A stretch of 64,000 nucleotides of DNA, taken from Saccostrea echinata (lineage: Eukaryota). The translations under genes and the position numbers were made by a program. Of this stretch, positions 38,301 through 59,000 are shown piece after piece. The stretch covers positions 310,001 to 374,000 of the forward strand of contig NW_026889778.1 of assembly GCF_033153115.1 (NCBI RefSeq), read 5' to 3'. The notes under the pieces are model-generated. The model was not told the DNA's origin and did no database searches. It saw nothing but the letters and a program-made list of their open reading frames with translations. How positions within the stretch are numbered: position 1 is the first letter of the stretch; every line of letters starts with the position of its first letter.

Positions 38301-39935
38301 AATACAACAATTCAGAAGATCCATAAACTGACAAATGAAGCTTTGTTGCCCAACAGCAAGAAAAATAGTATGATTAGCATCAACAAAATAATTGGTCTAG
38401 TATCTATCTGCCCACCCCCCTCCCCCCATTTATCACTATTCCCATGCAGACTATTAACAAAATGTCTATTATCTAACCCCATATTATTCCTTCTCACAAT
38501 GGCCTCTCTTGGCCGTTGAAGAACATTTAAAAAGATAAGTTATTTTTGTCTCATTTTTATTGATCTATTATTTCCAAGTCATTAAAACTATGAAAGTACT
38601 TTTTTTATTATACAATAAATTTTCTTGCATAATTCTCTTATTCTATTAAGCTTTCAAATACATTATGTACATTGATTAATTATCAAAGGTGAATGGCAAA
38701 GGGGAATAAATTTGCTCAGTAGAATACAAGTTAATAGAGCCCTGGCCAGGACCAGAAAACTTGACTAAATGGTCCAGGTGTTCAAAATTCTGGTAAAAAT
38801 ACCCTTGCATATTAAAACTTTTACTCCGTTTGCCTTGAACATCCAGAGAAGCATAGAAGATTTTCAAAGAAATGCATTTTCATCATATTATTAAATAAAC
38901 AAAGCCCCATCCTTACATCAGATCATCTGACCCATTGGCCACGAACTCACAATTCTGGAAGAAGCACCCTTTCTCATCATAACTATACACTTGTTTCTTT
39001 AGTTTATAACCAGTAGTAGATAAAAAATAAAATATTTTCACTATATACATGTAATCAATAGAGCTCTCCCCCCCCCCCCCCCCCCCCCCGAAACCCCTGA
39101 CCCAGAGGCCATGAATTTCACAATTTTGGAAGAGGCATTCTTCCTTATCATAACCATGCACTTCCTTTGTTTGAAAAATACCCAGGAGCAGAGAAGAAAA
39201 TTTTTAAAGAATTCATGCATTTTCCCTACATAACCAATAGAGCCCCCCCCCCCCAACACCAGAACCCCTGACCCTGGGGCCATGCAATTCACAATTTTGG
39301 AAGAGGCACTCTTGCTCATCATAACTATGTACTTAGTTACTTTATTTAATACCCAGGAGCAAAGAAGAAGATTTTCAAAGAATTCATGCATGTTCACTAC
39401 ATAATCAATAGAACCCCGTCCTAACACCAGAGCTCCTGACCCTGGGGCCATGAGATTCACAATTTTGAAAGAGGCACTCTTGCTCTTCATAACTATGTAT
39501 TTAGTTACTTTATTTAATACCCAGGAGCAGAGAAGAAGATTTTCAAAGAAATAATGCACTTTCACTATATGATCTATATAGCCCCACCCTAGCACCAGAA
39601 CCCCTGACCCTGGGGCCATGAATTTCACAGTTTTGGTAGAGGGCTCAATTATTATTACTATGATGCCAACAGTTTGACTGCTTGATGTCCAGGAGTAAAG
39701 AAGAAGATTTTTAAAGATTGCATTATTTTCAGTGGTTTAAGCCCCACCCCTCAAGCCCCAGGGGGGCAGGGACCATGAAATTCACAATTTTTGTTCCCCT
39801 TCACCCATAGATGCTATATGCCAAATTTGGTTGAAATTGGTTGAGCGGTTTCAGAGAAGAAGCTAAAAATGTTCAAATGTTAACACACGATGCACGACGC
39901 ACAACGCACGACGACGGACGAGAACAGATAGCAAA

Positions 39936-39967
<32 letters not shown>

Positions 39968-42900
39968 TAGAAAATCTGCAAAGCAACTCCACATGCTGGT
40001 ATAAAGTAATCACACTTGTATGTTCAAGTCCAGTTTATATATTAAATGTAAGACAGTTTAGTATAAAGCTACGAAATAATGAATGATGATGCTAATTATG
40101 AATTAAATGAATAAATTTTCTCTGTTACAAATGGGGGCATGGTGTTTTTGTGTAACCTTGGTTCCAACTCCTTGTACTGACATGGATTTTTTTTGTTTTC
40201 TGCTCTTTGGTTACCTTGGTTCTATGTAGACACAGTCACCCACTCAGAACACCTCATCCTTGTTCTTACAGTTAAATACTGACATTTTTTGTGACCTTGG
40301 TTCTATGTAGAACCTATGTATGTCACTCACTCGAAATGTTTCATCCTTGTTCAGTTGTACTTATAGTTAAATATTGACAAGTTACACATGGGGATGTTTT
40401 TTTGTTAGTGTACCTTGGTTCTATGTAGACAAAGTCACCCACTCGGAACGTCTCGTCCTTGTACTTAAAGCAGTCTTCTCCATCTCTCTCTGACTGTTAA
40501 ATGCAAAAAGAAAAAAAAGTAAAAAAAGAAAAACTAATGAATAAATCAGTAAATATAAAATAATAGTAAAAATTTAAACAAGAGGCCCATGGGCCACTTT
40601 GCTCACCTGAGCACTTCAGCTAGGAAAAAGCAGAAATCAGTCATTATAATATTGAAAAGTTTAAATAATAGTGGTCTTGGGAAGGGGAGGGGAGTGTTAT
40701 GATTTGAACAAACTTGAATCTACACTATCTGAGGATGCTTCTATATTTCTATGACTAATCATGACATGTAGATTTTTTCAAGATTATTTCCTATGCATTT
40801 ATCTTCTATTCCATTGTAAAACTTTGATCACCCATTTTGGCCTCTCCCTACCCCCCCCCACCCCCCCCACCCCACCCCGGTCATGATTTGAATCTACTCT
40901 CCCTGAGGATGCTTCCATATGGATATGATAAATCATGCTAAATCATGGCTTTGCTGTTCATGAGAAGATGACTTTTTACATATCTTTCCTAATGTATTCC
41001 TTTGTAAAACCTTGATCACCCATTGTGACCCCACCCTTCCCCCAGGGGTCATGATTTGAATCCAGGATCCACCTCTATAAACACTATACCCACACAGCCA
41101 AAATCCAGGGTCCACCCCTATAAACACTATACCCACACAGCCAAAATCCATGATCCACCCTTTTACAATACATGTATGTACTCACACAGCCAGAATCCAG
41201 GATCCTCTCCTCTGACTCCCGTTTTGATTGTTTATCCTCATCTTCTTTCTGTTCCTGCTCAAACTTTTTCTGTTTCTCAACTTCTAGGGCAGCCGTCAGA
41301 TGTTTCTCCTGGTAACTGAGAGCTGGGGTGAGGAGTCTCTCCCCGTTACGGCAAATCTCGTCACGCTGCTTAATAAAGAACATCTGCATCTCCACGGCAT
41401 CCTCATATAACTGTCAAATTGGAGAGTTAAATCAAACGTTAGACAGACAGTATACATGTACAACTGTCAACAGTGGAGAGATAAATCAGACGTTAAACAG
41501 ACAATATACAGGTCTGGAGTGTAAAATATGACTCACATTTTTATTTAGTAAGCTTTCTTTAAAATGAAAAAGAAAATACATGTAGGAAATACTGCTTGAA
41601 ACTCACTCTCTTTTATCATATCATGCACTGACCTTTACACATATCTAAGTTTGATATTTTCATCACCTGTTCAAATTTTGAAATTCACAAAATGTGCAGT
41701 GATTAGTTTGAAATTATGGAATAACTGTTTCAAGTTCACTCACCTGAGAATCTGTCCTACTGAGTCGTCGAGCACGCTCAAACACCTTAAACATGTCTTC
41801 CTGGAACCTGTCCATTCTGATGTATCGACCCTAAAACACAGAGATGACTCAGACTCAGTTAACATGAATATTAAATGTATCGAACCTAAAACACAGGGAC
41901 AACAAACTCAGTTAACATAATTACTAAATGTATCGAACCTAAAACAAAGACAAGACTCAAACTCAGTTAACATGAATACTAAATGTATCAGCCCTAAAAC
42001 ACATAGATGACTCAAACTCAGTGAACATGAATACTAAATGTATGGACCCTAAAACACAGAGATGACTCAAACTCAGTTAACATGATATACTAAATGTATT
42101 GAACCTAAAACACAGAGGTCACTTAAACTATTTTAACATGAATACTAAATGTATCGACCCTAAAACACAAAGATGACTCAGACTCAATTAACATGAATAC
42201 TAAATGTATCGACCCTAAAACACAGAGATGACTCAGACTCAGTTAACATAAATACTAAATGTATAAACCCTAAAACACAGAGATGACTTAAACACAGTTA
42301 ACATGAATACTAAACAATTTATTATTCAATTGAGAAAATCAGAAGCATATTTTTCATTCAATAAATAGATCAATTCAGTGCTTACTTTTTCCACATTTCT
42401 TTTGATCTGATCAAAGGTCAGAGGCTTCCTACAAAACAAAAGTTCAATGGTATCACAAAGGCACAACAAACAACAGAATTTCTCCCACTACATGTATGGC
42501 AAAAAAAAAGTTTAATTACAAGGGCACAACAATGAACCTAATTTCTCCCACTACATCTATGGGAGAAAAAAAACTAGAACTGTCCAAAAGGGACAAATAC
42601 CCCCCGCTGGGTTTTTCAGAGGTGCCAAATCACTAATATTTTATGGATCTATGAGGTGTTCACAATTTTCTTATTAACATTTAGAGTGAAAAAAATAATT
42701 GCTCATTATATTTTTTTTAATGAATGAAACCAAGAACAACCTAATAAAACATCAATACCAATACATTGTAATTACATTCTTCTTTAATACATTGAAAAAA
42801 TAAATTGCAACTATCTGTCATCTTTTTGAGACATGACATTCTGCAAATTGATTTTTGAAAAAAAAATCAATTAATTACAAAATCAAATTAATCTTGATAA

Positions 42901-45900
42901 CTTTATATCAAATTCATTTTAAAAATGAAAGGCTGGTCATCCTTTAACTATGTACTATGACAGACAATAAATTACAATTAAGAGAATTAAAGAACAGAGA
43001 TCTTTAAATTCCCAGGAGATATAGATAACACATGCTTGATCAGAGATGCCCTAACAACGTCCCACACTGAACTCATTAATTTATCTCTAACTGGATGATG
43101 TCCACTCATTACTCCCAAGGGACAAATGGATTTACACTATCTGCTGTGTAATGTAAAAATTGTTTTTAATACTTGGTGATTTTTTTTTGTTTGTTTTAAT
43201 GAATAGTTTTAAGCTGTAGTTCACATTTTTGTACAGATGTTCTAGATTCTGTGTCTCAAACCTTAGAAATAAACCCAAAATGACTAAGTCAATAAAAATG
43301 AAAAAAAAAACTGTAAAATGCAGAAAAATTACCAAATAATGTTGAAAATACCAGGTGCACATCTTCATATGGTAAATAATGAGTGTACAAATTTTCATAC
43401 AATTCTATGAAATAGTCTTTGAGAAAAGGTCAGGACAAAACCACATAATAAAAATGAAAAAAACACCTGTAAAATGCAGAAAAATTATTCAATCATGATG
43501 AAAATACCAGGTGCAAATCTTCATATGGTGAATAATAAGTGTACAAATTTTTAGACAAATCTATGCAATAGTCTCTGAGAAACGCTCTGGACAAAATCTT
43601 GTCTACAGACAGACGAACAGACAGACGGACATGGTGATTCCAATATACCCCCCCTAAACTTCGTTTGCGGGGGGTATAAAAAGAGTAAAGCACCTCTTTG
43701 ATTTCTAGGACAAGAGGCCAATGGGCCACAACACTACAAATGATTGCTTGATTGTATGTTGTTTTACGTCACCATTTACCGGTGAAGGGGTTCAAATTTA
43801 GACTTTACTCGGCACTCAGGACCATTGAGAAGTGAGGGATCTTTATCATGCCAATGCCTGCTATGACACGGGGCCTCAGTTTTTAAAGACCCGCAACTTT
43901 CACTTCTACATGCTGAGTGCTTGGTGAAGGAACAGTTGCTACCTATTTTTTATCGACTTAGGTCAGTCGCAACAGAAATATATATGACCTTCCGACCACA
44001 GAGCGAGCCCTCTACCAACTGACCTACCATGACGATCACTAGCAATAAGGAAGCTATGATCTAACCGGTGTTGAATACACACAACATTGGGATGATTTAA
44101 TATCAATACAATCAACATGAGAAGTCTAGAGGAGATTTCCTGTACACAGGCAGTATGTAAAATTTAGATCTCTGAGGTAGGGCCAAATTCTTTTTTTTAA
44201 AACAGCTGATATACACAACTTAGGTATGTTTTGCTTATTAATATGATTTAGTGTGCTCTTGCAATGCTTGAAAAGATTCTTTCTAATCCCTGTAAAATTC
44301 TTATCCCCTTTTGTAGCCTCTATTTAAAAGTTACTTACTCCTTCATTTTGGACACTGCTCCAATACAACAGTAACTAATTCATTAGTTAGTTATACCTTC
44401 AGTTTGGATGTGCTCCAATACAACAGTAACTAATTCACTAGTTAGTTACAACTTCAGTTTGGATGTGCTCCAATACAACAGTAACTAAATCACTAGTTAC
44501 CATGGTTACTTACTCTTTCAGTTTGGACGTCTCTAAATCCTCATCTGGGTCTCTCTCTGGAAGCTCCGCAAACGAGTCACTATAGCAACGACCCTCTTCA
44601 TCCTGTCATAGACAAGTAGAGTATTTCACCATTAATTTTATTTATAGCAATATGGAGATTCTCATCTCTTTCAATATTTTTTATTTTAAATTTTACAGAA
44701 AATAGATTCTGATATTTCCAAGAATATTGAATTCTTTTGGGTGAAACAAGGAATTGTTAGTACACTGACAAAGTTTAAAAGAATCCAATGGTGGTTGTAG
44801 GTAGATATAAATAGATCACTGTATGTTAATTCACCTGGTGATTGTAGGTATAGATATAAATAATTTACCTGGTGATTATAAATACATGTAGATATAGATA
44901 GGACATGCTTGATAATTTACCTGGTAAATGTAGGCAGATATAGATAATTTACCTGGTGATTGTAGGTAGATATAGATAATTTACCTGGTGATTGTAGGTA
45001 GATATAAATAGATTGGTCATCATCTCCATGACTAGAGCCCTCACATCTGGGACATCATTTGTTCCATCATCTGTCAGCTCCATTTTCTTCTCCAAAACGA
45101 GACGCTGTAGCGTCAGGGCGTCCTACAAACAGACACAAATCAAAAACAATGCTGTAATGTTGGGTGTTCTGAGATTAAAACAAACAGTATCACAATTTAT
45201 TAAAGGTCAGACAAGAAATATCAGAACAGTCAGCCAATCAGATTTCAGCATTACAAGTCAGATAATAAATATCAGAACAGTCAGCCAATCAGACTTCAGC
45301 ATTACAGGTCATACATAACCATGGATATAATCACTGGAAAAGGGGGAATTAGACATACGTTTACGTTTTAACATGTTTAAAGAAAAATATTTAGTTCACT
45401 CTATTTAATTAGGAAACAAAGATGAGTAAAATTTTCACAATTTCAACCTGAGTGAACTTCTGGGAAGTTGTTTTTTTTTCTATAAAAATATATCTGTTAC
45501 AACACTGTGATTGAATTTACTTAATAGTCCAAACTTGCTTTCTCAAACTCAATGGGACTAAGAAAAAAACTTTGAGATATCTGAAGATTTGAGATATCAG
45601 GGGTAAAATACTTTGAGAATAAGTAGTTGGGACTTCCAAATCACTTCAACATGTCCATGGTATTTGAGATATCAGCGAATGAGATACTGAAGTTCAACTG
45701 TATTTAATCAATAAATACCTTGTAAATGAGTGAGTCTGGTTCATTATATTTACAAGCATTGTCAAACATCTGTACAAAGTCCGCAGTGATGTCTTCTATT
45801 GATTCATACTGATTCTGTTGGACCTTCAGTAGAATTTTCTGCATGTCGATTGGTCGCTTAATGACCTCGTAATAATCCGGGTACTCCTGTTACAAGATGG

Positions 45901-48900
45901 GGACAGTTTATATACAAATATAACGTGTCTGTATTGGATTCTTCAAGAATTAGACATTTATAGAGTACACTTACAGTTTTCAGTGGCAGCTTCAGGAAGG
46001 GGAGGGCAAGGTCACGACCTTTAGCATCCTGGTAATTACTGACTGCGTCGTACATTTCCTGGAGACGAACAGGAAGCAGAGTCTGGGACTTTGCCTTGAG
46101 ACGACTGACCAATGAAAGGGGGTTATCATCATAATCACTCAAATCACAGGTATATTAAAGTGAATTTACAATGTAAAAATATTTAAATCAAGCAATATAC
46201 ATACTGAAAAATAAATAAGATCTGTAATCTATTTATAGAATCTGTAATTAGAATTTACTTCAACATCTCCCTCTTTCAAATTTATCATTCATATAAATTA
46301 CTTTAAAATATCATTATCAGATATCTCATTCTAACATGTTCTAAGATATCAGCTACTCTTAAGATATTAGATACTTCATAGACAGATAGATATCAGATAC
46401 TTTTTAGGTATCAGATAATTCTTACATATCAGAAACTCTTAAGATAACAGGTAGTTCATAGATATTTCTTAGATATCAGATACTTCTAGATATCAGATAC
46501 TCATAGAGATAATTCTTATATAACTATGAGCATGATGTTACTATTTCTACATTTACTGTAGCATTTACATTATTTTTAACGTCATTGATCACCAGCATCT
46601 GAAATAGTTCTAAACATTCAACTAACATTAGGTAAAAAATAACTTCAAAGGAACCAACAACTTGACAAATTCATGCAGTAAGATTTTTATTACCCTCTTG
46701 GTTTTTCAGCTTTTTTTCCAATGCTATAAATAGCACAACAAAGTAAGATACTCAGATAAGCCTAAAGCTATGAATAACATTTAAATATCTCAGATTTGCT
46801 GAACATAAATGAAGTTTGACAAGATGCCTCCACAGCCATCATGAAGATGCAGCAACAGCCATCAAAAACATGAAGTCCGAAATATATTTTAACAGAATTT
46901 AAATCCATAAGGTGCTAAATATTTGAAATGGAATAAACATTCATGGAAACCAGGAAAATATATATAAATATATATAGGACATCCCCAAAAAAATAGCTGA
47001 CTATTAAGGGGTATTGAAAACAGATTTATTTAAGAGATATTATGATTTAGTTTGTGAATAAAGAGATCAAGCGCATATGCTGTGCATTTACGTTTTATTT
47101 ACAGCCTGGTACAAAAATGAAAAAAAAAATATGGAAATTGTAATGGCTTTACATATATTACAGTTACTTTTGAATATACATTGCAAACAAAAATGATAAT
47201 GAGAGGTCTAAAGAAAAATCATCCAAGTAATCGGGTTCTCAGTCAGAAAATTAAGCGTCGAGTAACCAGTTACTAAATACTGTCCGATTTATTAACAACA
47301 CTACACTAAATACACGTATAAAGTACAACATGTACAAAAATGGAGAATTAAAGCAAAATATGAAATAAAATAAATAAATCCTAAAACACTCTGCATTCAG
47401 AAAAAAGTTAGAGAAAGTGCAAGAGTATAGAGTGCTGGGAACTAGCAAAGCAGTACATCTAAATCACTGTTAATAATAATTATTATGTCCTGAATGAATA
47501 ATTCTCGCACTAAATAGTGCTATCAAATACAAGAGAATGTTCACATGTTTTATATATTGTAAATCATAATTATATATATGTTAAATATAAAACATTTCAT
47601 TCAATGACTCTAATGATAATAATTTGATTTGAACATTTCCCCCCTCCCTATCCCCCTATCTGTTCCCCAATCAAAGTACACACTGCCTTTCATACAGTAT
47701 TAATAAAGTTTTAATTCATAATCACTTTGTTATCTGCTTGTCTAATTCATGTTATGACTACAAAAACTACAGCAGCTAATAAGAGAGTGATTCCATCAGG
47801 ATTAATCAAGCACTGAGAAAAAGTTTGTTTCTTTTTCTACTGTGGTCTTTTTTCTTTTAATGTAAATTTCATTTAGAAAAGAAACTCAAGCATTTCAAAA
47901 CAATAGGAAAATTCATTGTATAATGAATTTTATTATTAAAAGAAGTGGATCCAGCCTTAAATTTGTTCTTCTTACTGAGATCAAATCATGATGAAACCCT
48001 AATGAGAGATGGGTGTATATATATAAAGAAGAGAGGAAGCACAACACTTACAGGTACCTTTTGCTGAGCGCCGCTCGCCGGGACTCGATCACATGACAGA
48101 TCTGTTTCCACTTTGTTTTGAGGACTTTCTCCAGCTGTTCGGCGTCCTGGTACACCAGCGATTCCTCCTCATTGTAGAGACGTGCGTTATTAAACAGGCG
48201 CTCGAAATCCGTGATAATATGCTGCTCACTGGGGTACTACAGAGAGAAAAGTTCAGTGGGATATTTCACAAGTTCTTAACATAAGGAACATTTGCCTTGT
48301 TTGTCAAGAATTTGGCCTCCATCATTGACAGGCCAATATTCACCTTGTCCACTGAGAGTTTGGCATCTATCAATCACTGACAGGTCATTAATTACCTTAT
48401 CTGCCCTGAGTTTGGCTTCTATCATTGACAGGTCAATAATTACCTTCTGTGCTATTAGTTTGGCCTCTATCATTGAATGGTCAATAATTACCTTGTTTGC
48501 CCTGAGTTTGGCTTTTACCATTGAAAGGTCAATAATTACCTGGTCTGCCCTGAGTTTGGCCACTGTCATTGACAGGTCAATAATTTCCTGGTCTGCCCTG
48601 AGTTTGGCCACTATCATTGAAAGGTCAATAATTACCTTGTCTGCCCTGAGTTTGGCCTCTATCATTGAAAAGTCAATAATTACCTTGTCTGCCCTGGGTT
48701 TGACCTGTATCATTGAAAGGTCAATAATTACCTTGTCTGCCTTGAGTTTGGTTTTTATCATTGAAAGGTCAATAATTACCTTGTCTGTTCTGAGATTGGC
48801 CTCTAGCATTGACAGGGTCAATAATTACCTTGTCTGCCCTGAGTTTGGCCTCTATCATTGACAGGTCAATAATTACCTTGTCTGTCCTGAGTTTGGCCTC

Positions 48901-51900
48901 TATCATTGACAGGTCAATAATTACCTTGTTGGCCCTGAGTTTGGCCTCTATCATTGACAGGTCAATAATTACCTTGTCGGCCCTGAGTTTGGCCTCTATC
49001 ATTGACAGGTCTATAGGATTTGTGATGACTTGATAGTAGTCAGGGTAGTCCCTCTTTGATGGTAGCTGCATGAAGATGTATCTTAATGGTCGTCCATCGG
49101 GGTCCTACAATGATACAGTAAGGATTCAGTTAATGATACAGTAATTATTCAGTAGTATCAAGTAGGTCCTACAATGATACAGTAAGGATTCACTAATGAT
49201 ACAGTAATTATTCCATAACCTCCACATGTTAACTCTGACTTACCGTGGCATCAAACACGGATCTGTACAGTGTCCATAGCCTGCGTTTCATCATCTCCTC
49301 TGGAGTTGCTCGCTTTGCACGCTTCTTATCGCTGTCAGAGAGCCCGGTGCCTCGGCGCTGCTTACTGGAGGAACTTGCCTGGCTGTCCTCATCAAAAAAC
49401 TCACGAGAAATCTTCTGGAACAGAAACAACCCTTATCACATTTATACTGTCTCATGTTAAAAATCTTCATCAACAGACTAAGTTTGAAGTTCTCTACAAC
49501 TGACTGAGTTAGAAGTCTTCTAGTATAGAACTAAGCCTAATACATTTATATTGTCTAGGGACCAAGTTCGAAACTCCAGAACAGAAACAAGCCAACATTA
49601 CCCTGGCCTCTACAAAAACTTGCATTATGTTTTGTTCTTCACTGACAATGCCCAAACAAATAAATATGTTATACACCAAATATTTACTATATTTTCAAAC
49701 CTTTTAAAGGATGAGAGGCCCATGGGCCTCAACACTGAGTCAGATTTCACTTCCTGAGAAAAGAAAAAGTAAATAAAAGAAACCCCAAGGATGAAATGCT
49801 TGATGTCAACAATTTTAACCTATAAAAACAACATGAAAATTTCTAGGATCTCCGTGTTAATAAATCATTTGCATTGGGGTTAATTTTGTGGAAGTTAAAA
49901 GAACTGACAAACACATACATAACCTAATGTTATGTACCTGTTTTTAAAACCATTTGGGTGGTGTTAAATTATGCGAAACTTCACTCATCATTGTGATTTT
50001 CTGACAAAATTAATTTTAATTTTTCCTTAAACACTTTTTAGCTAACATTCCCAATGAAAATAAATACCGTAAATCTGGAAATTTTTACGTCGATTTATAT
50101 TTGCGAATCTGGGTCAAAAAGCTGTTGATCAATTTTTACGTTTCAAAATTTTGCAAACTGTCATTGGCACTAAAATTAAAAAGCGCTTAAAATTTTCAAC
50201 ACAGTTTATAAGTTACGCATGTACATACAATAAATTACACATATACTTACAGTATTAAATGATGCCAACGTTGTTAGATAAAACAAATGGCCTCTCTTTC
50301 TTGGAGAAATACTTTAAAAGAGAAATACTGCATGTCAAACCATCGTAGTGTAGGTAAGTACTCTCCACGCACGGAATATCATGTCGGGTAATTACATAAA
50401 TTAGTTTGTAGAATAAACAGGTTTCTTAAAATGACCACTGCTTACTAGCACCTGTTCACGGGGTAAAAACAGACACCAGCTTTCACCAAAATTTTCCTTT
50501 ACATTTTTAGTTGCTTATTTTTATGAAAAATATTTTTGCGAATGCAATGCACGCGCAAATTTGCTAAAAATTTATCTACAGTAAAAATTTCCAGATTTAC
50601 GGTATCACTATTGCTTTAGAAGAAAAAAAATATCTTACACAGATAGAAAAATGTGTTTTGTGCACCCAGGAAACACTATTACAAAGTCAATCATTTTTTA
50701 AAAAAGATTTTTAAAGATTTTTCCTATATATTTCTTCGTAAAACTTTGATCTTTTGTGGCCCAGCCTATGCCAGGGTATCATGATTTGAACAAATTTGAA
50801 TATACATAATGTAGTGAAGCTTTCACAAAAGTTTTGTCTAGACTGGTCCAGTGGTTCTTGAGAAAATTTTTGAAAGATGCCAGTAATATTTCACTAATTC
50901 TAAATTATCTCCCCTTAGAAGATGACATGGTCCTTCATTTGAATACCCTTCACCAAAAGATAATTTGTGGAAGTATGGTTGAAACTGGCCAGTGGTTTTT
51001 GACAAGAGACAAATTTGAAAAGTATTAGATGGACAGACAGCTAGACAGACAGATGTCATACAAAAAGTGATCAGAAAAGCCCACTTGAACTTTTTAGCTC
51101 AGATGAACTAACAAGATCTTTTTTTTTAAAATTTTTCTCACATGCTTTGTTAATTTCATGATGAAACTAGAAGTAAGCAATGTGCTCACAAAATGATACC
51201 CCCGTCCCCACTTCCAGGACAGTGTAATGGTAAAGTCCATGTTTTGCTATCAGAAAGCCCAAATATCTGTACAATCAAAATGTAAGACAGTGCACAATGG
51301 CACTATGTAATAAAGATTCTGTGATAGCCTCATTGAATTTTAATCAGTGGTAAAGGAGGAGTTTTAAATGAGAGATGGGTACCCCCAATATTATAGAAAG
51401 AATGTCAGTGTCCATGCTTTGCTATGGGTAACAGGACAGACGGGAGGACAGACAGATGGGACAGACAGACTGAGACCCCCGTCACTATATACCCCTGCTT
51501 TTCAAGTGGGAGGCATAAAAAAACAATAAGTGAAGCCATTCAAGAATGTTATCCAGAAAAGAAGGAGATGCTTGTTCCTCAATGGTTGAACATAAAACCC
51601 TACAACTCCATCAAAGCTCCCTACTGCTGCACCACCAACAGGAAATTATAAGTTTTTTTACCTTAATGTTTGACATTAATAAAAGTTTAGATTATGTAGC
51701 ATTCAATCTTAACTGATACAGACACATCAACAAAAGCTGAGATTTGGTAAAAGCCTTTAATCTGCCTGTGTATGTGTGGGGTAGGGTGGGGTGGGGTGGG
51801 GGATAAAGTCCCCTGAATTTCTTCTCACTTACCATCACGGGCAGGTCAAACTGAGAAGAGGAAATGTCATCCAGACTCAGATCCTGGTAATAAAGAACTA

Positions 51901-53430
51901 ACATCAACACCACAGACATTTACTGACAGTCTTTCTCTATGTTCAATCATCATTTCAATAACACATTTGTATCTTATCTGCTTTAAAAGTTTATTGAAAA
52001 ATGTTCAGGGAAAAGTTTTTCACTTTTCAATTTAAATGCATGTTTTAAAATACTGATATAAACTTTAATAACCTAATAGATAACAGTTTATAAAAGAATA
52101 AGAAAAAATTTAAATAATATAAATGTAATAATTACAGGCAGGATGCAAGCAAGCATTATGGGTAATGCAACTGAATATGCTGACTACTAGAGTGTTGTAA
52201 CACTACTCCCTCCCCTTTCCCCCTTTAATTCTTAAATATGGTACAGCCAATGTAAAAGCACCTGAGAAAAAATTCACAATGAACATTACAAAGTTTTAAA
52301 ACAAGAGGTCCAAGGGTCTTGAATCGCTCTTCTTATCTAAGCCTCTTAATATCCTTAATATTTAGATAAAACCTTGAAATTCAACAAGAGGCCCATGGGC
52401 CACAGCGCTCACCTGAGTAACTTTGGCCTTGCTGTTTTTCACCCGATTTCTCCCCCCCCCCCCCCCCCCCCCCCGTAGTACTTATTGTGGCCCCTATATA
52501 TTTCAATGTAAAACTTGGATTCCCTATTGTGGCCCCGCCCTACCCCCGGGGGTCATGATCTGAACAATTTAGAATCTACATAACCCCAGCATGCTTCCAA
52601 GTAAGTTTCAGCTTTTCTGGCCCAGTGGTTCTTGAGAAGAAGATTTTAAAAGATTTTTCCTATATATTTCAATGTAAAACTTGGATTCCCTATTAAGGCC
52701 CCGCCCTACCCCCGGGGGTCATGATTTGAACAATTTAGAATCTACACTACCCCAGCATGCTTCCACATAAGTTTCAGCTTTTCTGGCCCAGTGGTTCTTG
52801 AGAAGAATATTTTAAAAGATTTTTCCTATATATTTCAATGTAAAACTTGGATTCCCTATTGTGGCCCCGCCCTACCCCCGGGGGTCATGATTTGAACAAT
52901 TTAGAATCTACACTACCCCAGCATGCTTCCACATAAGTTTCAGCTTTTCAGGTCCAGTGGTTCTTGAGAAGAAGATTTTTAAAGATTTTTCCTATATATT
53001 TCAATGTAAAACTTGGATTTTCTATTGTGGCCCTGCCCTACCCCCGGGGGTCATGATTTGAATAATTTAGAATCTACACTACCCCAGCATGCTTCCACAT
53101 AAGTTTCAGCTTTTCAGGCCCAGTTGTTCTTGAGGAGAAGATTTTTAAAGATTTTTCCTAGATATTTCAATGTAAAACTTGGATTCCCTATTATGGCCCC
53201 GCCCTACCCCTGGGGGTCATGATTTGAACAATTTAGAATCTACACTACCCCAGGATGCTTCCATATAAGTTTCAGCTTTACTGGCCCTGTGGTTCTTGAG
53301 AAGATTTTTTAATGACCCCACCCTATTTTTGTCTTCTCTTGATTATCTCCCCTTGTGAGGGGACTTGGCCCTTCATTTTAACAATTTAAATTCCCCTTCA
53401 CCCAAGGATGCTTTGTACCAAGTTTGGTCA

Positions 53431-53461
<31 letters not shown>

Positions 53462-53541
53462 AAAAATGTGAAAAGTTTACAGACGGACGGACAGACAGAC
53501 AGACAGACGGACAGACGGACGGACGGACGACGGACAAAATG

Positions 53542-53587
<46 letters not shown>

Positions 53588-55898
53588 GCAGGTTAATGTG
53601 ACCTACTTTTTGACTCTGTGAACCAAAATGAATCAACTGACATTTGATGATTCTAAGCTTATTATTTTTAATAAATAGATATAGTCTTGAAATTCCAAAA
53701 GTAGGACACCATGACCTACTGTTTAGTTGAATCACTCTGAGGTATGCACCAACTGACAAAGTTTGATGATTTTAAGCCAATTAGTATCTGAAATATTAAA
53801 ATATATACATGGAATTCCAAAAGTTGGTCACCATGACCTACTTTTTAGCTGACACATTCCGAGGAACCAAGATGTATCAACTGACAAAGTTTGATGATTT
53901 TAAGCCTATTATCATCCAAAATATTTAGATATAGCCATAAAATTCAAGAAGTAGGTCATTGTGACCTACTTTTTGGTTGACACACTCTGAAGACCCAAGA
54001 TGCATCAACTAAAAAAACTTTGATGATTCTAAGCCACTTAATATCCAAATATTTAGATATAGCCATGAAATTCCAAAAGTAGGTCAGGAAGAACTACTTC
54101 TTGATTGTCACACTTCAAGAACACAAGATGCATCAACTGACAAAGTTCGGTGACTCCAAGTCTCTTTTAATCCAAAATATTTAGATATGGTCAGGGTGAC
54201 CTACTTTTTAGTTAATATACTTCGAGGACCCAAAATGCATCAACTGACAAAGTTTGATAATTCTAGGCCTCTAACTATTTGAAATATTCAGATACAACCT
54301 TCAAATTCCAAAAGTAGGTCATGGTGACCTACTTATTAGTTGACACACTCCAAGGACTCAACATGCATCAACTGACAAAGTTTGATGATTCTAGGCCAAT
54401 TAGTATCTGAAATACTTTAATATACCAATAAAATTCCCAAAGTAGGTCATAGTGACCTACTTTTTGATTGACACACTCGGAGGACTCAAGATGATTCAAC
54501 TGACAAAGTTTGATTCCTAGGCTTCATAGTGTCAAAAATATGCCTCTTGAACAATTTGAAAATGAATATGTGTGAAAAGCAAAAAGTAGGTTATTATGAC
54601 CTACTTTCTGACAAATATGTTTCAAGGCTGCAAGTTGCATCAACTTACAAAATTTGATGATTCTAAACCTCTCAGTATCTGAAATAATGGCCTTAAATAT
54701 TTTGAAAATGATTAGTCATAAAATTCAAAAAGTAGGTCATAGTGACCTACTTTTTGGTTGAAACACTTCAAAGGTTCATGATGAATTTACAGTGGGACTT
54801 ATGAGGTTTTATACATCATACATGTATATCATATACTGATCTAAACAAATGGCACACTTTTTTGTTAAGACCAAAAGTCTTTTGTTTCTTTTAAGTTTCT
54901 TTTGAAAAAAATAGTCTTATTTAATAAACTTGTCTGTTTCTTAATTATACTGAATACAAAACAAACCTGTACTGTTACAGCAGTTTACAGAAGAAAAAAA
55001 AGAAAGAAATTGACCATATTAAGTGCATTTATCCTAGAACTTTTTTCCCACGTTATTTAATTTCTACAATTTATTCTGTCATAAATAAATCTCAAGATAA
55101 TTGTTTATCTCATCACTGAGAAAATTGTTTAAATTTGGGAATTAAGTCTGAACATGCCATCAGCAATTGTTTTAAACTGGTACAAATTCAAATCCATTCC
55201 ATGAAAATACAAAACACACCAAGCACATTGACTAACTCTGTGTCACTCTGATGTGATGAAATGTACAACACAATTTAATACAACATCTATAATCAAGTCC
55301 TATATTAAATGTAAAAGGGTTACAACATCCATAGTCAACCAATATCATTCCTACATCAAAACAGCAACACATCAAAGATGCATGATATTAGTCATTACAT
55401 GCCAGCAATAAAAGGTACAAGGTCTACATCTCCACACCGGACATTACTACTTCATATGATAGAAATGTCCCTTTGTAGCAACATTTCATACAACACACAA
55501 ACTCATAACTCTGTCACAAAAGGGGGGCATAATGAGGAATCTATTTCCTCAAACTGTCTGCAAAGAATACACACAAGCACAGCAGAAATAATAATGTATT
55601 AGGTTTATTACAACAACAAATCTGGGTACACATATAGAATCCACTGTCCTCAAGTTCTCAGTCATTCCAACAAGAAATCATCACAGTCCTCCCAGACATA
55701 TCTGGTTTAGGACCTTTACAATACATTTACAATACATTATTGGTCTTTTTTAAAACTATAATTTCTTGGTGGGAATGCTAAATCTTGTCAGGAACAGTAA
55801 CTCTGTCAGTCTTACCTTGTCAGGAACAGTAACTCTGCCAGTCTTACCTTGTTTCCTTCGAGTCGATCCAGTTCTCTCTTTCTGTCCATCATCACCTT
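8374..55898 (-). CDS. PBRM1: Polybromo-1 (BAF180, PBAF subunit), multi-exon, 5'-truncated by the window
   Basis: Spliced translation gives tandem bromodomains (LPSKRDYPDYYQVITNPIDL, EYPDYYEVIKRPIDM, DEEGRCYSDSFAEL), two BAH domains (FRVGDFVYIEPR...WFYRPNETFHLASRKFLEKEVFKSD), an HMG box (SGYIVYS...FGEISRIVG.KWRNL) and the PBRM1 tail (PPRTQRLLHSEAYLRYIEGL...ALWALRDLML). Splice sites are GT-AG and phases match. Confidence 0.97.
8460..8567. mobile_element. Short MITE (PIF/Harbinger-like)
   Basis: TIR aggcctgttcaa / ttgaacaggcct, flanked by ctg direct repeats. Confidence 0.6.
9005..10360. repeat. 38-bp tandem array containing the donor of the last PBRM1 intron, more than 20 copies
   Basis: aaatgacttacacaatgtgtttttatgacttgttatat; the minus strand reads CATTGT|GTAAGT. 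Confidence 0.93.
9516..9974. mobile_element. Tc1/mariner-pogo type MITE inserted in the 38-bp array
   Basis: 25-bp TIR ccgtttatactcgcctataagtcgg (3 mismatches), TA duplication inside a repeat unit. Confidence 0.85.
10352..10578 (-). CDS. PBRM1: PBRM1 penultimate exon (YIEGLRADK...ALWALRDLMLKDTLNISRTLPFDAL)
   Basis: Conserved C-terminal motif; ends TTG T|gtaagt. Confidence 0.93.
10807..10921 (-). CDS. PBRM1: PBRM1 exon (QQMAPPPPPPPPPRPPSPMFVSVPPRTQRLLHSEAYLR)
   Basis: Conserved RLLHSEAYL motif; phase 1-2. Confidence 0.95.
12530..12922 (-). CDS. PBRM1: PBRM1 Pro/Gly/Met-rich exon; donor position uncertain
   Basis: GC-rich ORF MHSGAPRLPHHAGMSPGRPY...; phase-1 donor GCAG|gtagtg chosen to fit the next exon, other donors are possible. 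Confidence 0.7.
13314..13340 (-). CDS. PBRM1: PBRM1 microexon (NQGQYQAQG)
   Basis: tttttag|...CAAG|gtaata, 27 nt, phase 1-1. Confidence 0.7.
13475..14262. repeat. ~33-35-bp tandem array
   Basis: ttttactgggtgtgttattgtatttgtttacat, more than 20 copies with variable T-runs. Confidence 0.9.
14790..15200. repeat. ~55-bp tandem array derived from PBRM1 exon sequence
   Basis: ggtcagttagatgggttaaggggacccctta resembles exon 15504-15533 ggtcgattagatggggctggggacccctta. Confidence 0.75.
15262..15592. repeat. 111-bp triplication of exon end plus donor
   Basis: Two diverged intronic copies plus the true exon. Confidence 0.9.
15490..15685 (-). CDS. PBRM1: PBRM1 exon, HMG-box second half
   Basis: WRNLDKSEKEKYEERAKRIAEEQLAKQQ...RPGTPG|gtaagt, phase 0-1. 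Confidence 0.93.
16775..16897 (-). CDS. PBRM1: PBRM1 HMG-box exon variant B (paralog of A, probably mutually exclusive)
   Basis: ttgtag|KNRKWRPPSGYILFSKESRRIINAESPDISFGEISRLVGVQ|gtaact, 123 nt, phase 0-0, no stops. Confidence 0.85.
17256..17381 (-). CDS. PBRM1: PBRM1 HMG-box exon variant A
   Basis: GKNSMKRQISGYIVYSGEIRKIIQQENPECTFGEISRIVGGK, 126 nt, phase 0-0. Confidence 0.92.
17630..17644 (-). CDS. PBRM1: Candidate 15-nt microexon (VSRSR)
   Basis: Strong acceptor tgttttgttttcag, donor AGG|gtaaag, phase 0-0. Confidence 0.45.
18472..18617. mobile_element. Foldback / palindromic non-autonomous element end
   Basis: catttattgactg...aaccaaactgtttgcct..aggcaaacagtttggtt...cagtcaataaatg long imperfect inverted repeat. 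Confidence 0.65.
19333..19359 (-). CDS. PBRM1: PBRM1 microexon (EEPTEKKKK)
   Basis: ttttag|...AAG|gtagaa, 27 nt, phase 0-0. Confidence 0.7.
20330..20377 (-). CDS. PBRM1: PBRM1 small exon (TFEDFSTPVPEKTSKK), possibly cassette
   Basis: ttttag|...AAG|gtatat, 48 nt, phase 0-0. Confidence 0.65.
20690..20998. repeat. ~35-bp donor-containing array, about 8 intronic copies
   Basis: Minus strand AAGTCCACCAAAAAG|GTGAGTTAAAAATCAGT. Confidence 0.92.
20978..21142 (-). CDS. PBRM1: PBRM1 exon (EPSPLLMKAADD...PSTKSTKK)
   Basis: ttacag|...AAG|gtgagt, 165 nt; EPSPLL continues the conserved PQKEPSPLL motif. Confidence 0.92.
21382..21655 (-). mobile_element. SINE (tRNA-derived head, simple-repeat tail); related copy at 43738-44035
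   Basis: Minus strand begins gtggcacagtggttagag (A-box-like) and has gggttcaaatcc (B-box-like); tail aaacaaa. Confidence 0.7.
21660..22235. repeat. 42-bp tandem array, about 13 copies (plus copies at 21290-21380)
   Basis: ttgacccagaataaggacaacactgtaaacaaatcacaacca. Confidence 0.92.
25445..25672. repeat. 37-bp tandem array, 6 copies
   Basis: gtattgttatacccatctctatgtcattataagggaa. Confidence 0.92.
26040..27655 (+). pseudogene. pogo/Tigger (TIGD-like) DDE transposase, frameshifted
   Basis: NADKTGNFY, GGK..ERLT, NMNGTEKLPLLVIGK, YRANKKAWM, FLPPNTTSILQPTDQGII motifs lie in different frames. Confidence 0.88.
27959..29706. mobile_element. hAT-like non-autonomous element nested in the pogo element
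   Basis: TIR cagtgttccagctagg / cctagctggaacacag. Confidence 0.7.
28748..29320. mobile_element. MITE with 8-10-bp TSD (Merlin/MuDR-like)
   Basis: TIR with repeated agagtacgctag; direct repeat gctataatac on both sides. Confidence 0.8.
30811..30882 (-). CDS. PBRM1: PBRM1 exon (KYNLSGLVTDDEIFFYKKPITPQK)
   Basis: 72 nt, phase 0-0; post-BAH2 DDEI.F..KP motif. Confidence 0.92.
31016..31903. mobile_element. MITE
   Basis: 16-bp TIR cagtgatttttctaca / tgtagaaaaatcactg; aacac on both flanks. Confidence 0.75.
32227..32324 (-). CDS. PBRM1: PBRM1 exon, BAH2 end
   Basis: RVTEIPEEDTYLCESKVQEADRTVKRLGKGLK|gtgaga, phase 1-0. Confidence 0.93.
32516..32816. repeat. 79-bp donor-containing array, 3 intronic copies
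   Basis: Copies start at 32516, 32595 and 32674; the true junction copy starts at 32753. Confidence 0.95.
32759..32931 (-). CDS. PBRM1: PBRM1 exon, BAH2
   Basis: NDAYFTGTAFVRPADIPHSPTRLFYRHELFLSS...GRCCVLHLKEYCI, phase 2-1. Confidence 0.95.
33442..33514 (-). CDS. PBRM1: PBRM1 exon, BAH2
   Basis: GDSVFLKNNTDTPDISRIEKIFVI, phase 1-2. Confidence 0.9.
33560..34499. mobile_element. HINE-like element (ccagaacccctgacc family) with a nested ~190-bp MITE at ~33732-33920
   Basis: gtcacctgagt start, ctcaggtgacctaaaaa end. Confidence 0.75.
35347..35431 (-). CDS. PBRM1: PBRM1 exon, BAH2 start
   Basis: DIPLENPNPDDGYNYYEQLCTPYGTFKIG, phase 0-1. Confidence 0.93.
35697..36168. repeat. Donor-containing array, 48 bp plus n x 18 bp, 7 intronic copies
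   Basis: Minus strand GGATAAAGAGAGAATT|GTAGGTGTTAGATAATATATCACC. Confidence 0.92.
36145..36291 (-). CDS. PBRM1: PBRM1 exon, inter-BAH linker
   Basis: VWQIPGGDQVSLSPREIPLVPVRVSSVFA...ILDKERI|gtaggt, 147 nt. Confidence 0.92.
36645..36719 (-). CDS. PBRM1: PBRM1 exon, BAH1 end
   Basis: GFEDKDVFVCESRYSNRHKSFKKIK, 75 nt. Confidence 0.95.
36937..37038 (-). CDS. PBRM1: PBRM1 exon, BAH1
   Basis: EVFKSDFYTSIPLSQVIGKCYVMYVKDYFKSRPE|gtatgt, 102 nt. Confidence 0.95.
37265..37403 (-). CDS. PBRM1: PBRM1 exon, BAH1
   Basis: EKGLEPHIMCIEKLY...GNWFYRPNETFHLASRKFLEK|gtcagt, phase 2-0. Confidence 0.95.
37357..38152. repeat. 77/81-bp acceptor-containing array, 9 intronic copies
   Basis: Minus strand TATTTTCTGACACAG|AGAGAAGGG.TTAGAACCACACATTATG. 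Confidence 0.95.
38263..39967. mobile_element. HINE-like element with ~178-bp core repeats
   Basis: ggcccaagggccttaacggtcacctgagt start; gacg microsatellite; ggtcacctgagtgactcaggtgacctaaaaa end. Confidence 0.85.
40414..40493 (-). CDS. PBRM1: PBRM1 exon, BAH1 start
   Basis: SERDGEDCFKYKDETFRVGDFVYIEPR, phase 0-2. Confidence 0.93.
40577..41060. mobile_element. Truncated pearl/HINE element with Cg170-like units
   Basis: aacaagaggcccatgggccactttgctcacctgag start plus diverged units. Confidence 0.7.
41186..41410 (-). CDS. PBRM1: PBRM1 exon, BD6 end plus linker
   Basis: LYEDAVEMQMFFIKQRDEICRNGERLLTPALSY...ILDSGC|gtgagt, 225 nt. Confidence 0.93.
41744..41830 (-). CDS. PBRM1: PBRM1 exon, bromodomain 6 (GRYIRMDRFQEDMFKVFERARRLSRTDSQ)
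   Basis: ttttag|...CAG|gtgagt, 87 nt. Confidence 0.95.
41820..42313. repeat. 55-bp acceptor-containing array, 8 intronic copies
   Basis: Minus strand CTCTGTGTTTTAG|GGTCGATACAT. Confidence 0.95.
42386..42428 (-). CDS. PBRM1: PBRM1 exon, bromodomain 6 (KPLTFDQIKRNVEK)
   Basis: ttgtag|...|gtaagc, 43 nt, phase 2-0. Confidence 0.92.
42572..43682. mobile_element. HINE-like element
   Basis: aactagaactgtcc...gggacaaatacccccg start; acag/acgg microsatellite; tatacccccc..ggggggtata hairpin end. Confidence 0.7.
44514..44602 (-). CDS. PBRM1: PBRM1 exon, bromodomain 6
   Basis: DEEGRCYSDSFAELPERDPDEDLETSKLK, phase 0-2. Confidence 0.95.
44985..45122 (-). CDS. PBRM1: PBRM1 exon, BD5 end / BD6 start
   Basis: DALTLQRLVLEKKMEL...VPDVRALVMEMMTNLFISTYNHQ|gtaaat, 138 nt. 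Confidence 0.95.
45719..45886 (-). CDS. PBRM1: PBRM1 exon, bromodomain 5
   Basis: EYPDYYEVIKRPIDMQKI...MFDNACKYNEPDSLIYK, 168 nt. Confidence 0.96.
45975..46104 (-). CDS. PBRM1: PBRM1 exon, start of bromodomain 5
   Basis: RLQEMYDAVSNYQDAKGRDLALPFLKLPLKT|gtaagt, phase 2-0. Confidence 0.93.
46694..46723 (-). CDS. PBRM1: Candidate 30-nt cassette microexon (IGKKAEKPRG)
   Basis: tttatag|...AGAGG|gtaata; phase 2-2 fits the flanking exons, open frame. Confidence 0.45.
48058..48236 (-). CDS. PBRM1: PBRM1 exon, bromodomain 4 B/C helices
   Basis: ctgtag|YPSEQHIITDFERLFNNARLYNEEESLVYQDAEQLEKVL...; phase-2 donor, alternative GTAAGT donor 6 nt further (48052). Confidence 0.93.
48290..49011. repeat. 48-bp donor-containing array, about 14 intronic copies
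   Basis: Minus strand GACCTGTCAATGATAGAGGCCAAACTCAGGGCAGACAAG|GTAATTATT. Confidence 0.96.
48973..49104 (-). CDS. PBRM1: PBRM1 exon, bromodomain 4 ZA loop
   Basis: ttgtag|DPDGRPLRYIFMQLPSKRDYPDYYQVITNPIDLSMIEAKLRADK|gtaatt, 132 nt. Confidence 0.95.
49244..49414 (-). CDS. PBRM1: PBRM1 exon, linker plus start of bromodomain 4
   Basis: ttccag|KISREFF...RRLWTLYRSVFDAT|gtaagt, 171 nt; CAGAAG tandem acceptor. Confidence 0.9.
50067..50602. mobile_element. Tc1/mariner-type MITE
   Basis: Perfect 22-bp TIR ccgtaaatctggaaatttttac, TA on both flanks. Confidence 0.88.
51833..51883 (-). CDS. PBRM1: PBRM1 linker exon (DLSLDDISSSQFDLPVM)
   Basis: taccag|...ATG|gtaagt, 51 nt, phase 0-0. Confidence 0.7.
52300..54785. 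mobile_element. HINE-like element with ~120-bp hairpin repeats (host)
   Basis: acaagaggtccaagggtcttgaatcgctcttct start; same units as 4873-7602. Confidence 0.8.
52383..53587. mobile_element. Young pearl/HINE element with about 5 Cg170-like 166-bp units (nested)
   Basis: gctcacctgag / ctcaggtgagc subterminal inverted repeat, 166-bp period, acgg/acag microsatellite. Confidence 0.9.
55848..55898 (-). CDS. PBRM1: PBRM1 exon, end of bromodomain 3 (KVMMDRKRELDRLEGNK)
   Basis: ctacag|...AAG|gtaaga, 51 nt, phase 0-0; resembles the post-bromodomain helix. Confidence 0.8.
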
Positions 55899-56010
55899 CT
55901 GTAGAATCACAGCATGCTAAAAATAGAAACATGATAATACTTCTTTAGTATCATAGCATGCTAAAAATAGAAACATAATATTCTGTAGAATCACAGCATG
56001 CTAAAAATAA

Positions 56011-59000
56011 AAACAAGAGGCCCAAGGGCCTAGAATCGCTCTTCTGATAAACTGTACAACCTATCACTTCTATTTGAAGCCTCTAAGTATCCTGTATATT
56101 TAGATAAACTCTTGAAATTCCAATTCACATTCTGAGAACCCAAGATGATTCTAAGCCATCTAGTACCCGAGAGCTGGTCAGGTGACCTACTTATCACTTG
56201 TCATTCTCTTAGGACCCATCAACTAAGTATGATGATTCTAAGCCAAATATTACCTAAATATTAAAATTATAACCATAAAATTTTATAAGTAGGTCAAAGT
56301 GACCTACTTTTCAGTTGTTGTACTCCAAGGACCCAAGATGCATCAACTAACAAAGTTTGATGATTCTAAGCCAATTAGTACCCAAAATATTTAATTGAAG
56401 CCATAAATTTTCAAAAGTAGGTCACGGTGACCTACTTTTCAGTTGTTGTACTCCAAGGACCCAAGATGCATCAACTGACAAGATTTGATGATTCTAAGCC
56501 AATTAGTACCCAAAATATTTAATTAAAGCCATAAATTTTCAAAAGTAGGTCAAGGTGACCTACTTTTCAGTCAACCTACTCCAAGGACCCAAGATGCATT
56601 AACTGACAAATTTTGATGATTCTAAGCCAAATGGTTCCTGAAAATATTAAATACAGCCATAAAATTTCAAAAGTAGGTCACCTCAAGAATTATACCTACT
56701 TTTCAGTTGTCGTACTCCAAGGACCCAAGATGCATCAACTGACAAAGTTTGATGATTCTAAGCCAATACGTACTTGAAATATTTAATTAAAGCGATAAAT
56801 TTTCAAAAGTAGGTCACGGTGACCTACTTTTCAGTCGACCTACTCCGAAGACCCAAGATGCATCAACTGACAAAGTTTGATGATTCTAAGCCAATTAGTA
56901 CTTGAAATATTTTATTAAAGCCGTAAATTTTCAAAAGTAGGTCACGGTGACCTACTTTTCAGTCGACCTACTCCGAAGACCCACGATGCATCAACTGACA
57001 AAGTTTGATGATTCTAAGGAAATTAGTACCTGAAATATTTAATTAAAGCGATAAATTTTCAAAAGTAGGTCACGGTGACCTACTTTTCAGTCGACCTACT
57101 CCAAAGACCCAAGATGCATCAACTGACAAAGTTTGATGATTCTAAGCCAATTAGTACCTGAAATATTCAATTAAAGCCATAAATTTTTTTAAAGTAGGTC
57201 ATGGTGACCTACTTTTCAGTTGACGTTTTTCGAGGACCCAAGATGCATCAACTTACAAAGTTCTATTATCATAGACTTTAAAATGTCCAAATTATGCCTC
57301 TAAAACGCTTTGAAATCGAATGCCTGTAAAGGTCAAAAAGTAGGTCACTGTGACCTACTTTTTAATAAATATGTTTTATGGCCCCAAGATGCATCATCTT
57401 ACAAGATTTAATGATTCTAAACCTCTCGGTATTCGAATTAATGACCTTAATTGTTTTGAAAAAGATTAGCCATAAAATTCAGAAAGTAGGTCAAGGTGAC
57501 CTACTTTTTAGTTGACGTACTTTGAGGACCCAAGATGCATCAACTGACAAAGTTTGATGATCATAGGCCTTAAATTGTTCAAAATATGCCTCTAAATCAT
57601 TTTGAAAAAGAATGGCCTCAAAATTTAAAAAGTAGGTCACCGTGACCTACTTTTGAGTCAACATGATATGAGGTCCTTAGATGCATCAACTGACAAGATT
57701 TGATGATCCTAGTCCTTATAGTAAGCAAAATATCAACATTTTAATAAAATGTAATTTTTGGTCAACTTTGAAGTGACCTTGAGACCATGCCCTTTGCCCC
57801 AGGGTATATCCCCATGCAAATTTTAATCTAGAACATATCCTCATCCTTTTGTGTAAGTTTGGTGATAATCTGCCCAGTGGTTCTTGAGAAGAAGATTTTT
57901 TAGCAACCAGTACTTTTGTTTCTATTTTCCTAATTATCTCTCCTTGTTTAAGGGTCAAAACCCTAGTTTTAGTAAACAAGAGGCCCAAGGGCCTTAACGG
58001 TCCCGTGAGTATGATACAACAATTTAAAGGATGCAGAGAGTATAAAATGAACTGAAAGGTGAAGCTTTGTTGCCCAAAAGCAAGAAAAATAGAGTGATCA
58101 TGATCAACAAAATAATTGGTCTTAATATTCATTAACAGTTCATAAATTAGGTTCTAATCTGTTCCCCATTTATCACTATCACCATACAGTATATTAACAA
58201 ATTATCAATGCTTCTGTACTATTTTAATTCTTTGTTGAAATCTCTTACATTGGCCTCTCTTGGTCTTTGATGAACATTTAATAAGATAAGTTATTTTTGT
58301 CTCATTTTTATTTATCTACTACTTACAAGTCTAGTATCTGATCATTAAAACTATGAAAGTACTTTTTGTATTATACAATAAAAGTTTTTGCATAATTCTC
58401 TTATTCTATTTACCTTTCAAGTACATTATTTACAGTGATAAATTATCAAAAGTAAATGGCAAAGGGGAATAACTCCTCTCAGTAGAATACAAACTAATAG
58501 AGCCCTGGCCAGGACCAGAACACTTGACCAAATGGTCCAGATGTTCAAAAATCTGGTAAAAATTCCCTTCCTTATAAAAACTTTTACTCTGTTTGCCTCA
58601 GATATGCCCAGGTGCGGAAAAGATTTTTAAATAAACAATGCATTTTTACTACAGATTCACTATATTATCAATAGAGCCCCCCCCCCCCCCCCCCCCGAAA
58701 CACCAGAGCTTCTGACCCTGGGACCATACGTTTGCTCATCATAACTAATCACTTTGTTTATCTGCTTAACACTAAGGAGCAAAACAGGATTATTTAATAG
58801 AATTAATGCATTTTCACTAAATTATCAAGAGCCCCACCCTCACACCAGCACATCTGACCCAGGGGTCATGAAATTCACTACTCTGGAAGAAGCACGCTTG
58901 CTTATCATAACTATACACTTAGCCTCTTTGCTTTTTTAACCAGAAGAAGAAAAGAATATTTTCAAAGAAATTTTGCTTTTTCACTTTATAATCAATAGAA

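Follow-up and report, generated by a model that had tools for sequence, protein, structure and literature searches.

The 555-nt intron that precedes exon 21 of the polybromo-1 gene (PBRM1) of the oyster Saccostrea echinata contains a tandem array of nine units, the last of which is the real intron/exon junction. We consider it highly probable that this array is a mirage minisatellite, in which the last copy is spliced and the eight upstream copies are tolerated, functionless by-products. Taken singly, the array is unremarkable, being a mirage found in a new host; more weight attaches to the gene-wide and regional pattern to which it belongs, in which exon edges carry local tandem duplications in excess. 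Positions given below without a contig or locus name refer to the window, i.e. the whole 64,000-nt stretch of DNA that was analyzed.

Anatomy of the exon 21 array

The exon next to the array matches oyster polybromo-1 (96% identity to protein P0001 of Saccostrea cucullata and 95% to P0002 of Ostrea edulis), with 32 hits among 98 candidates. The gene model, assembled from the window and neighbouring genome stretches, has 42 exons and encodes 1774 aa without a stop; every junction is AG/GT and the product is 95% identical to P0001. Exons 11-42 occupy 10352..55916 on the minus strand, and exons 1-10 lie outside the window. Judging from its position ahead of the BAH exon, exon 21 probably falls within the last bromodomain; a Pfam search with its 29 residues alone gave no match. 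Intron 10 (window position 55917 to C29:403955, C29 being the contig that holds the window) is 38 kb long, whereas the median intron measures 692 nt, and it abounds in dispersed satellites of 128, 146, 166 and 168 bp.

The intron in question (42385-41831, minus strand; 555 nt, GT..AG, phase 0) separates exon 20 (42386..42428, 43 nt, KPLTFDQIKRNVEK, with the donor GT at 42385) from exon 21 (41744..41830, 87 nt, GRYIRMDRFQEDMFKVFERARRLSRTDSQ), which is of equal length in 14/14 oyster homologues. The array was placed by TRF at 41820..42314 on the minus strand (period 55, 9.0 copies, 86% matches, score 729, far above chance), so that the opening ~70 nt of the intron are unique sequence outside the repeat. 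Each unit (53-56 bp, which refines the 55 bp of the original prediction) joins 44 nt of the intron end to 11 nt of the exon start. Mean identity across units is 91% per column, and without the eight extra units the intron would measure 116 nt. The units carry private substitutions (~10% per site), which fall mainly on C and G. A search of the 923-Mb genome, which ignores very common words, returned a single match, the array itself, and no dispersed copies were found in 712 kb of other loci. Within the 11 exon nt of the unit, the CpG (41828-41826 and its copies) is altered in four of eight copies, and only one of the seven C columns of the array is invariant, a pattern such as decay of methylated C would give.

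As had been predicted, eight intact acceptors precede the real one, each consisting of TTTTAG followed by 11 exon-like nt, and each leads to an in-frame stop within five codons. The peptide GRYI-stop, originally given for the best-conserved copies, is read at two of the eight only. In the direction of transcription, the decoy AGs are located at 42270..42271 (decoy 1, first "exon" base 42269, GLYI-stop), 42215..42216 (decoy 2, 42214, GRYI-stop), 42160..42161 (decoy 3, 42159, GRYI-stop), 42105..42106 (decoy 4, 42104, VQYI-stop), 42049..42050 (decoy 5, 42048, GPYI-stop), 41994..41995 (decoy 6, 41993, G-stop), 41939..41940 (decoy 7, 41938, VRYI-stop) and 41886..41887 (decoy 8, 41885, VRYI-stop, the stop being TAA), and the real AG is at 41831..41832. 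The stop in the decoys is a single ancestral event, the first intron codon past the break.

Arrays of this type are known in amphioxus as "mirages", and Canestro et al. 2002 is said to be the original report. The passages on mirages in PMC3087553 describe minisatellite-like duplications of intron/exon boundaries, on both the donor and the acceptor side, with units of 10-160 bp that are 81-100% identical and unstable in length and that leave splicing undisturbed; the cases include Adh3 and the globin genes BflGb6 and BflGb9, and a passage in PMC3902484 adds troponin C and PGBD5. The exon 21 array belongs to this described class, which the original prediction overlooked. Its head-to-tail copies, like those of amphioxus, span the border, with the ninth unit being the real one; the unit size and the TRF match level lie within the amphioxus ranges; splice signals are retained in the copies; normal splicing (here, the major form) is unaffected; and the repeat is derived from its own locus. 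BflGb6 likewise has an acceptor-side array composed of intron end and exon start. According to the same passages, many but not all amphioxus copies keep their signals, whereas the AG is kept in 8/8 oyster copies, and length polymorphism was shown there, whereas the oyster array is known from one assembly; the host here is a mollusc. These passages present individual cases only, whereas for the oyster we compare counts with a null expectation, give the ratio of donors to acceptors and contrast the region with other loci.

Within the literature searched, mainly outside subscription journals, we found no bivalve reports of junction-spanning repeats. A metagenome scan for the orthologous oyster intron yielded four loci, none of which covers the exon 21 acceptor. 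In the PBRM1 gene of another animal (77% identity), a 29-bp array lies on the donor of a junction that is absent from the oyster; it has 4.3 units in locus L053 (1049-1175) and at least 13.6 in locus L052 (1388-1782), although short-read assembly could distort these numbers, and the difference bears on that array and not on the one at exon 21.

The history of the array may have begun with one duplication, of 44 intron and 11 exon nt, when the intron measured ~116 nt; the copies would then have been expanded by slippage or unequal exchange and have decayed to the present ~10% divergence per site. Since the intact exon continues from one copy only, the last, that copy has to be the real site. 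Intron gain by tandem duplication of an exonic proto-splice site was rejected as an origin, as intron end makes up 80% of the unit and the intron opens with ~70 nt of unique sequence.

Acceptor choice among sites equivalent on the intron side

In each of four putative RNA runs, one contig was found in which precisely the 555 nt are missing and the donor is joined to the last AG, in agreement with the prediction that eight earlier AGs are passed over. No joint to a decoy and no coverage of the intron was seen in the contigs of these runs, which, because contigs drop rare forms, describes the major splice form only. The four runs (out of six listed) represent at most three samples from two studies, at contig depths of 10-138; since rare variants are lost in contigs, and products with a stop would be concealed by decay, the rate of decoy use lies outside their reach. 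Five runs contain 19-22% of the words of the window, which is the share expected from exons alone, and given this exon-only cover and the GT..AG joints, our guess is that the runs are RNA. An insertion at the exon 20/21 junction is present in none of 14 oyster PBRM1 proteins.

The decoys are indistinguishable from the real site on the intron side. The branch-like motif TTAAC occurs at −32 of the real unit and in five of the eight decoys (at −30 in one of them), with TTAAT in a sixth; decoys 4 and 6 are without such a motif. A branch point unique to the true acceptor, which would have counted against the original prediction, was thus not found. A splice-site matrix built from the other 39 acceptors of PBRM1, with the real exon 21 site excluded, gave a score of 4.9 for the real site, 7.0-7.7 for three decoys, 4.9 for two and 3.5-4.7 for the remaining three, and decoy 2 shows no difference from the real site in the 35 nt upstream and the 11 nt downstream. 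Masking of the decoys by RNA structure was rejected, as the pre-mRNA folds no better than shuffled sequences (z 0.54). We also rejected an internal donor that would turn the unit into a micro-exon: the candidates score −2 or worse, save for a GT directly after the AG.

Two features belong to the last AG alone: it is followed by the remainder of the exon, and it lies nearest to the next donor (87 nt away, vs. 142-526 nt for the decoys). The intron-side signals are equivalent, yet the last AG is used, and by exclusion the choice is therefore likely made from the exon side. Of the two explanations originally offered, exon definition or a poison-splicing outlet, the first is retained in this form and the second is not supported (see below). 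With nine equivalent branch/pyrimidine/AG modules, the winner would be set by exon-side cues, namely the closeness of the downstream donor and the further 76 nt of exon, which are missing behind the decoys. Exon size alone is insufficient as an explanation and cannot exclude decoy 8, because the exon that this decoy would define (142 nt) is of ordinary length for PBRM1.

The introns concerned are short once the copies are subtracted: 116 nt here, and 65 and 85 nt at two other acceptor arrays. At intron sizes of 65-116 nt, cross-intron recognition is usually assumed.

The array may be viewed as a natural experiment on 3′ splice-site choice, in which nine branch/tract/AG modules, all near-identical, are in competition and the one closest to the exon prevails. 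It is the acceptor-side mirror of intron 7 of human F7, where, according to the passages on this intron in PMC1557585, a 37-bp VNTR ends in a unit that is the real exon/intron border, and the pseudo-sites are functional in minigenes but out-competed by position. In F7 identical pseudo-sites are normally silent, as those of the oyster appear to be, and in both cases the exon-nearest site is used; the F7 array is located on the donor side and was tested in minigenes, whereas the evidence at the oyster acceptor consists of sequence and contigs.

Tandem arrays at other exon edges

Arrays on the minus strand were found at many further PBRM1 junctions: at acceptor 55916 (55896..56016, two extra copies), donor 48973 (48311..49015, 48 bp x 14.6), donor 44985 (44783..45019), donor 44514 (44325..44531), donor 40414 (40145..40470, decayed), acceptor 37403 (37356..38128, 77 bp x 9.9, nine decoy AGs with ~50 exon nt each), donor 36145 (35698..36168), donor 32759 (32516..32815, 79 bp x 3.8), donor 20978 (20693..20999, 35-36 bp x 8.7), donor 15490 (15262..15591, 111 bp x 3) and the putative last donor 10352 (9967..10364), a junction placed from the end of the homologues and not from RNA. 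The array at acceptor 37403, ahead of the first BAH exon, contains 200-nt exact repeats and appears as a younger twin of the exon 21 array. The last intron (donor 10352) appears to split the stop codon, and its donor is repeated about seven times. Other locus-unique arrays (41409-41510, 42450-42575, 17386-17513, 16605-16774 and 12450-12518) end ~25 nt or less from an exon without crossing into it. Ab initio exon picks overran the true end at several array-bearing exons; junction arrays thus mislead gene prediction, and they are likely polymorphic markers.

For counting, an echo was defined as a copy of the junction 24-mer (12 exon and 12 intron nt) with at least 19 matches, 10-300 nt away. In PBRM1, 13/42 donors and 4/41 acceptors are echoed, i.e. 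17/83 junctions, always on the intron side (exon side, 0/83). Against a plain repeat-cover null there is no excess: 21% of junctions (17/81 in this comparison) are echoed vs. 18.7% of deep-intron positions (22.5% when either side is counted), and repeats cover 19-22% of intron sequence. An array can meet a junction only with its end unit, and this null was therefore replaced by an edge-based one, the chance that an intron position belongs to an end unit (a first unit with no copy upstream), and the enrichment at junctions stands only if this null is accepted. With an edge-based background of 2.0% without dispersed repeats and 4.1% with them, the PBRM1 donors are strongly enriched (P 1e-12 and 7e-9, respectively), and the acceptors weakly (P 0.02 and 0.12). 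At 23/24 matches the donor enrichment persists (P 4e-5 without dispersed repeats, 1e-3 with); at 24/24 identity, represented by two donors and one acceptor, the enrichment at junctions is not significant.

In two neighbouring genes, encoding a sugar transporter (C29 about 418,400-427,100, plus strand) and G6PD (about 445,000-470,700, minus strand; the two genes are contained in loci L006-L011), 3/15 and 4/17 junctions are echoed, respectively (7/32 together); their exons were picked ab initio, with one exon in each confirmed by Pfam. A set from elsewhere in the genome was derived from 378 myosin, kinesin and HECT matches, of which 258 were kept, giving 82 introns in 49 gene stretches; matches that spanned introns, looked duplicated or lay outside the fetched DNA were left out, exon ends were placed by the matrix, and DEAD and UCH family matches were excluded from all counts. 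Echoes were present there at 5/82 donors and 1/82 acceptors. The donors exceed their background of 1.1% (P 0.002, or 0.012 without one duplicated pair). The PBRM1 region, with 24/115 echoed junctions, exceeds the 6/164 found elsewhere (P 7e-6); junction placement in the regional and elsewhere sets is approximate. When all sets are pooled, donors are echoed about three times as often as acceptors (22/141 vs. 8/138, P 0.011), a difference that may stem from a mutational bias or from decoy acceptors being selected against more strongly. Two arrays were seen in random blocks, where ab initio exons were too mixed with mobile-element frames to count.

The positions of locus-unique arrays show the same crowding. 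In 54 regional introns, 33 of 95 such arrays reach into an exon, and array starts within 50 nt of an edge number 3.5 (donor) and 2.1 (acceptor) per kb, vs. 0.7 beyond 400 nt. Of the 28 arrays in the 82 other introns, eight extend into an exon, and starts within 50 nt number 1.7 (donor) and 0.5 (acceptor) per kb vs. 0.14 and 0.23. Either duplications arise more often at exon edges, or they are lost from deep intron sequence, where turnover is faster; the former is favoured because the enrichment persists among near-identical copies, although homogenization can give old arrays a young look.

We put forward tentatively, and with more doubt than confidence, that oyster exon edges might be hotspots of tandem duplication, where an exon-anchored process would seed arrays several-fold above the intron background, affecting as many as one in five junctions close to a chromosome end. 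Candidate processes would be repair that begins in conserved exon and slips at the limit of homology, or transcription-linked breaks at splice sites. If this is true, acceptor arrays in introns of 65-116 nt would show exon-side 3′ choice in very short introns. If the excess at exon edges reflects a mutational bias, it would bear on the origin of mirages, the mechanism of which is called unclear in the mirage passages of PMC3087553, and would provide a measurable route to intron growth.

Human minisatellites cluster near chromosome ends. On C29, repeat cover is ~0.20 over 26 blocks at 0.23-0.49 Mb vs. 0.055 over 16 blocks beyond 0.6 Mb. The contig starts (C29:1-10000) with a 1.76-kb tandem satellite, in which CCCTAA is distributed 91 vs. 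6 between the strands; it is oriented as a left chromosome end and, having no run of four CCCTAA, is not a pure telomere. On C2, a gradient toward a true telomere was not significant over 20 blocks (P 0.34 for cover, 0.09 for unique arrays). A chromosome-end (subtelomere) effect on repeat density is therefore plausible and only partly supported. The last 10 kb of C29 contain reading frames that we take to be histone-like.

Function or by-product

An origin of the array as a transposon-borne satellite, or as an assembly artefact mimicking a junction repeat, can be regarded as effectively refuted. The window does hold dispersed satellites (of 128, 146, 166 and 168 bp), but the exon 21 array has a single match in the genome, each of its units includes 11 nt of exon 21, and the private substitutions of the units are unlike the mis-assembly of one sequence.

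Poison exons and unproductive splicing coupled to nonsense-mediated decay are a known system, and any use of a decoy in the oyster would likewise put an early stop in the message. As a poison-splicing outlet, the array would divert a regulated share of transcripts to the decoys and to degradation, and the PBRM1 dose would be tuned by copy number. Such a role would fit the AG and early stop kept in 8/8 decoys, the nearly invariant core and stop columns, and the decoy scores, which are as good as that of the real site; we nevertheless consider it very unlikely. With base-specific rates, the intactness of the decoy AGs has P 0.29 and that of TTTTAG P 0.07; a nine-column invariant run reaches P 0.004, but it was chosen post hoc, and some run of nine appears in 12% of column shuffles. 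Nor does the early stop speak for a purpose, as a stop or frameshift is the default outcome when AT-rich intron is read: among 65 listed decoys, drawn from all echoed PBRM1 junctions, 59 shift the frame or stop before the decoy-defined segment ends, and only four are in frame and open. The nearest-copy distances of 24 arrays divide 9/9/6 by frame, with no preference for frameshifting units. The contigs of 4/4 putative RNA runs contain no decoy isoform (weak evidence, as contigs drop rare forms), and the repeat is young and one of many in PBRM1. Because the same structure is found at 17/83 PBRM1 junctions, donors more than acceptors, the exon 21 array needs no special purpose.

It is also unlikely, in our view, that the decoys are noticeably used without being selected, decay cleaning up the products and a mildly harmful array persisting by drift. 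The equality of the intron-side signals would agree with such a leak, and the scarcity of acceptor arrays relative to donor arrays (8/138 vs. 22/141) fits stronger selection against decoy acceptors. A costly leak, however, should lead to the accumulation of AG-destroying changes, and in the eight acceptor arrays pooled the AG is intact in 38/39 copies, vs. 87% for other dinucleotides (P 0.19); moreover, the F7 passages in PMC1557585 describe pseudo-sites that are silent even when they give no stop. In the pooled donor arrays, GT is kept in 75/88 copies (P 0.12), so that the AG and GT copies show neither purging nor clear retention. On the preferred reading, that of tolerated, functionless copies, a transcript leaking to a decoy would contain the early stop, and nonsense-mediated decay would remove it.

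At donor 48973, the first three decoy donors of the array, which would place the exon end at 48925, 48877 or 48829, are in frame and stop-free and have scores like that of the real donor; to judge from the sequence, their use would add 16-residue repeats to a bromodomain.
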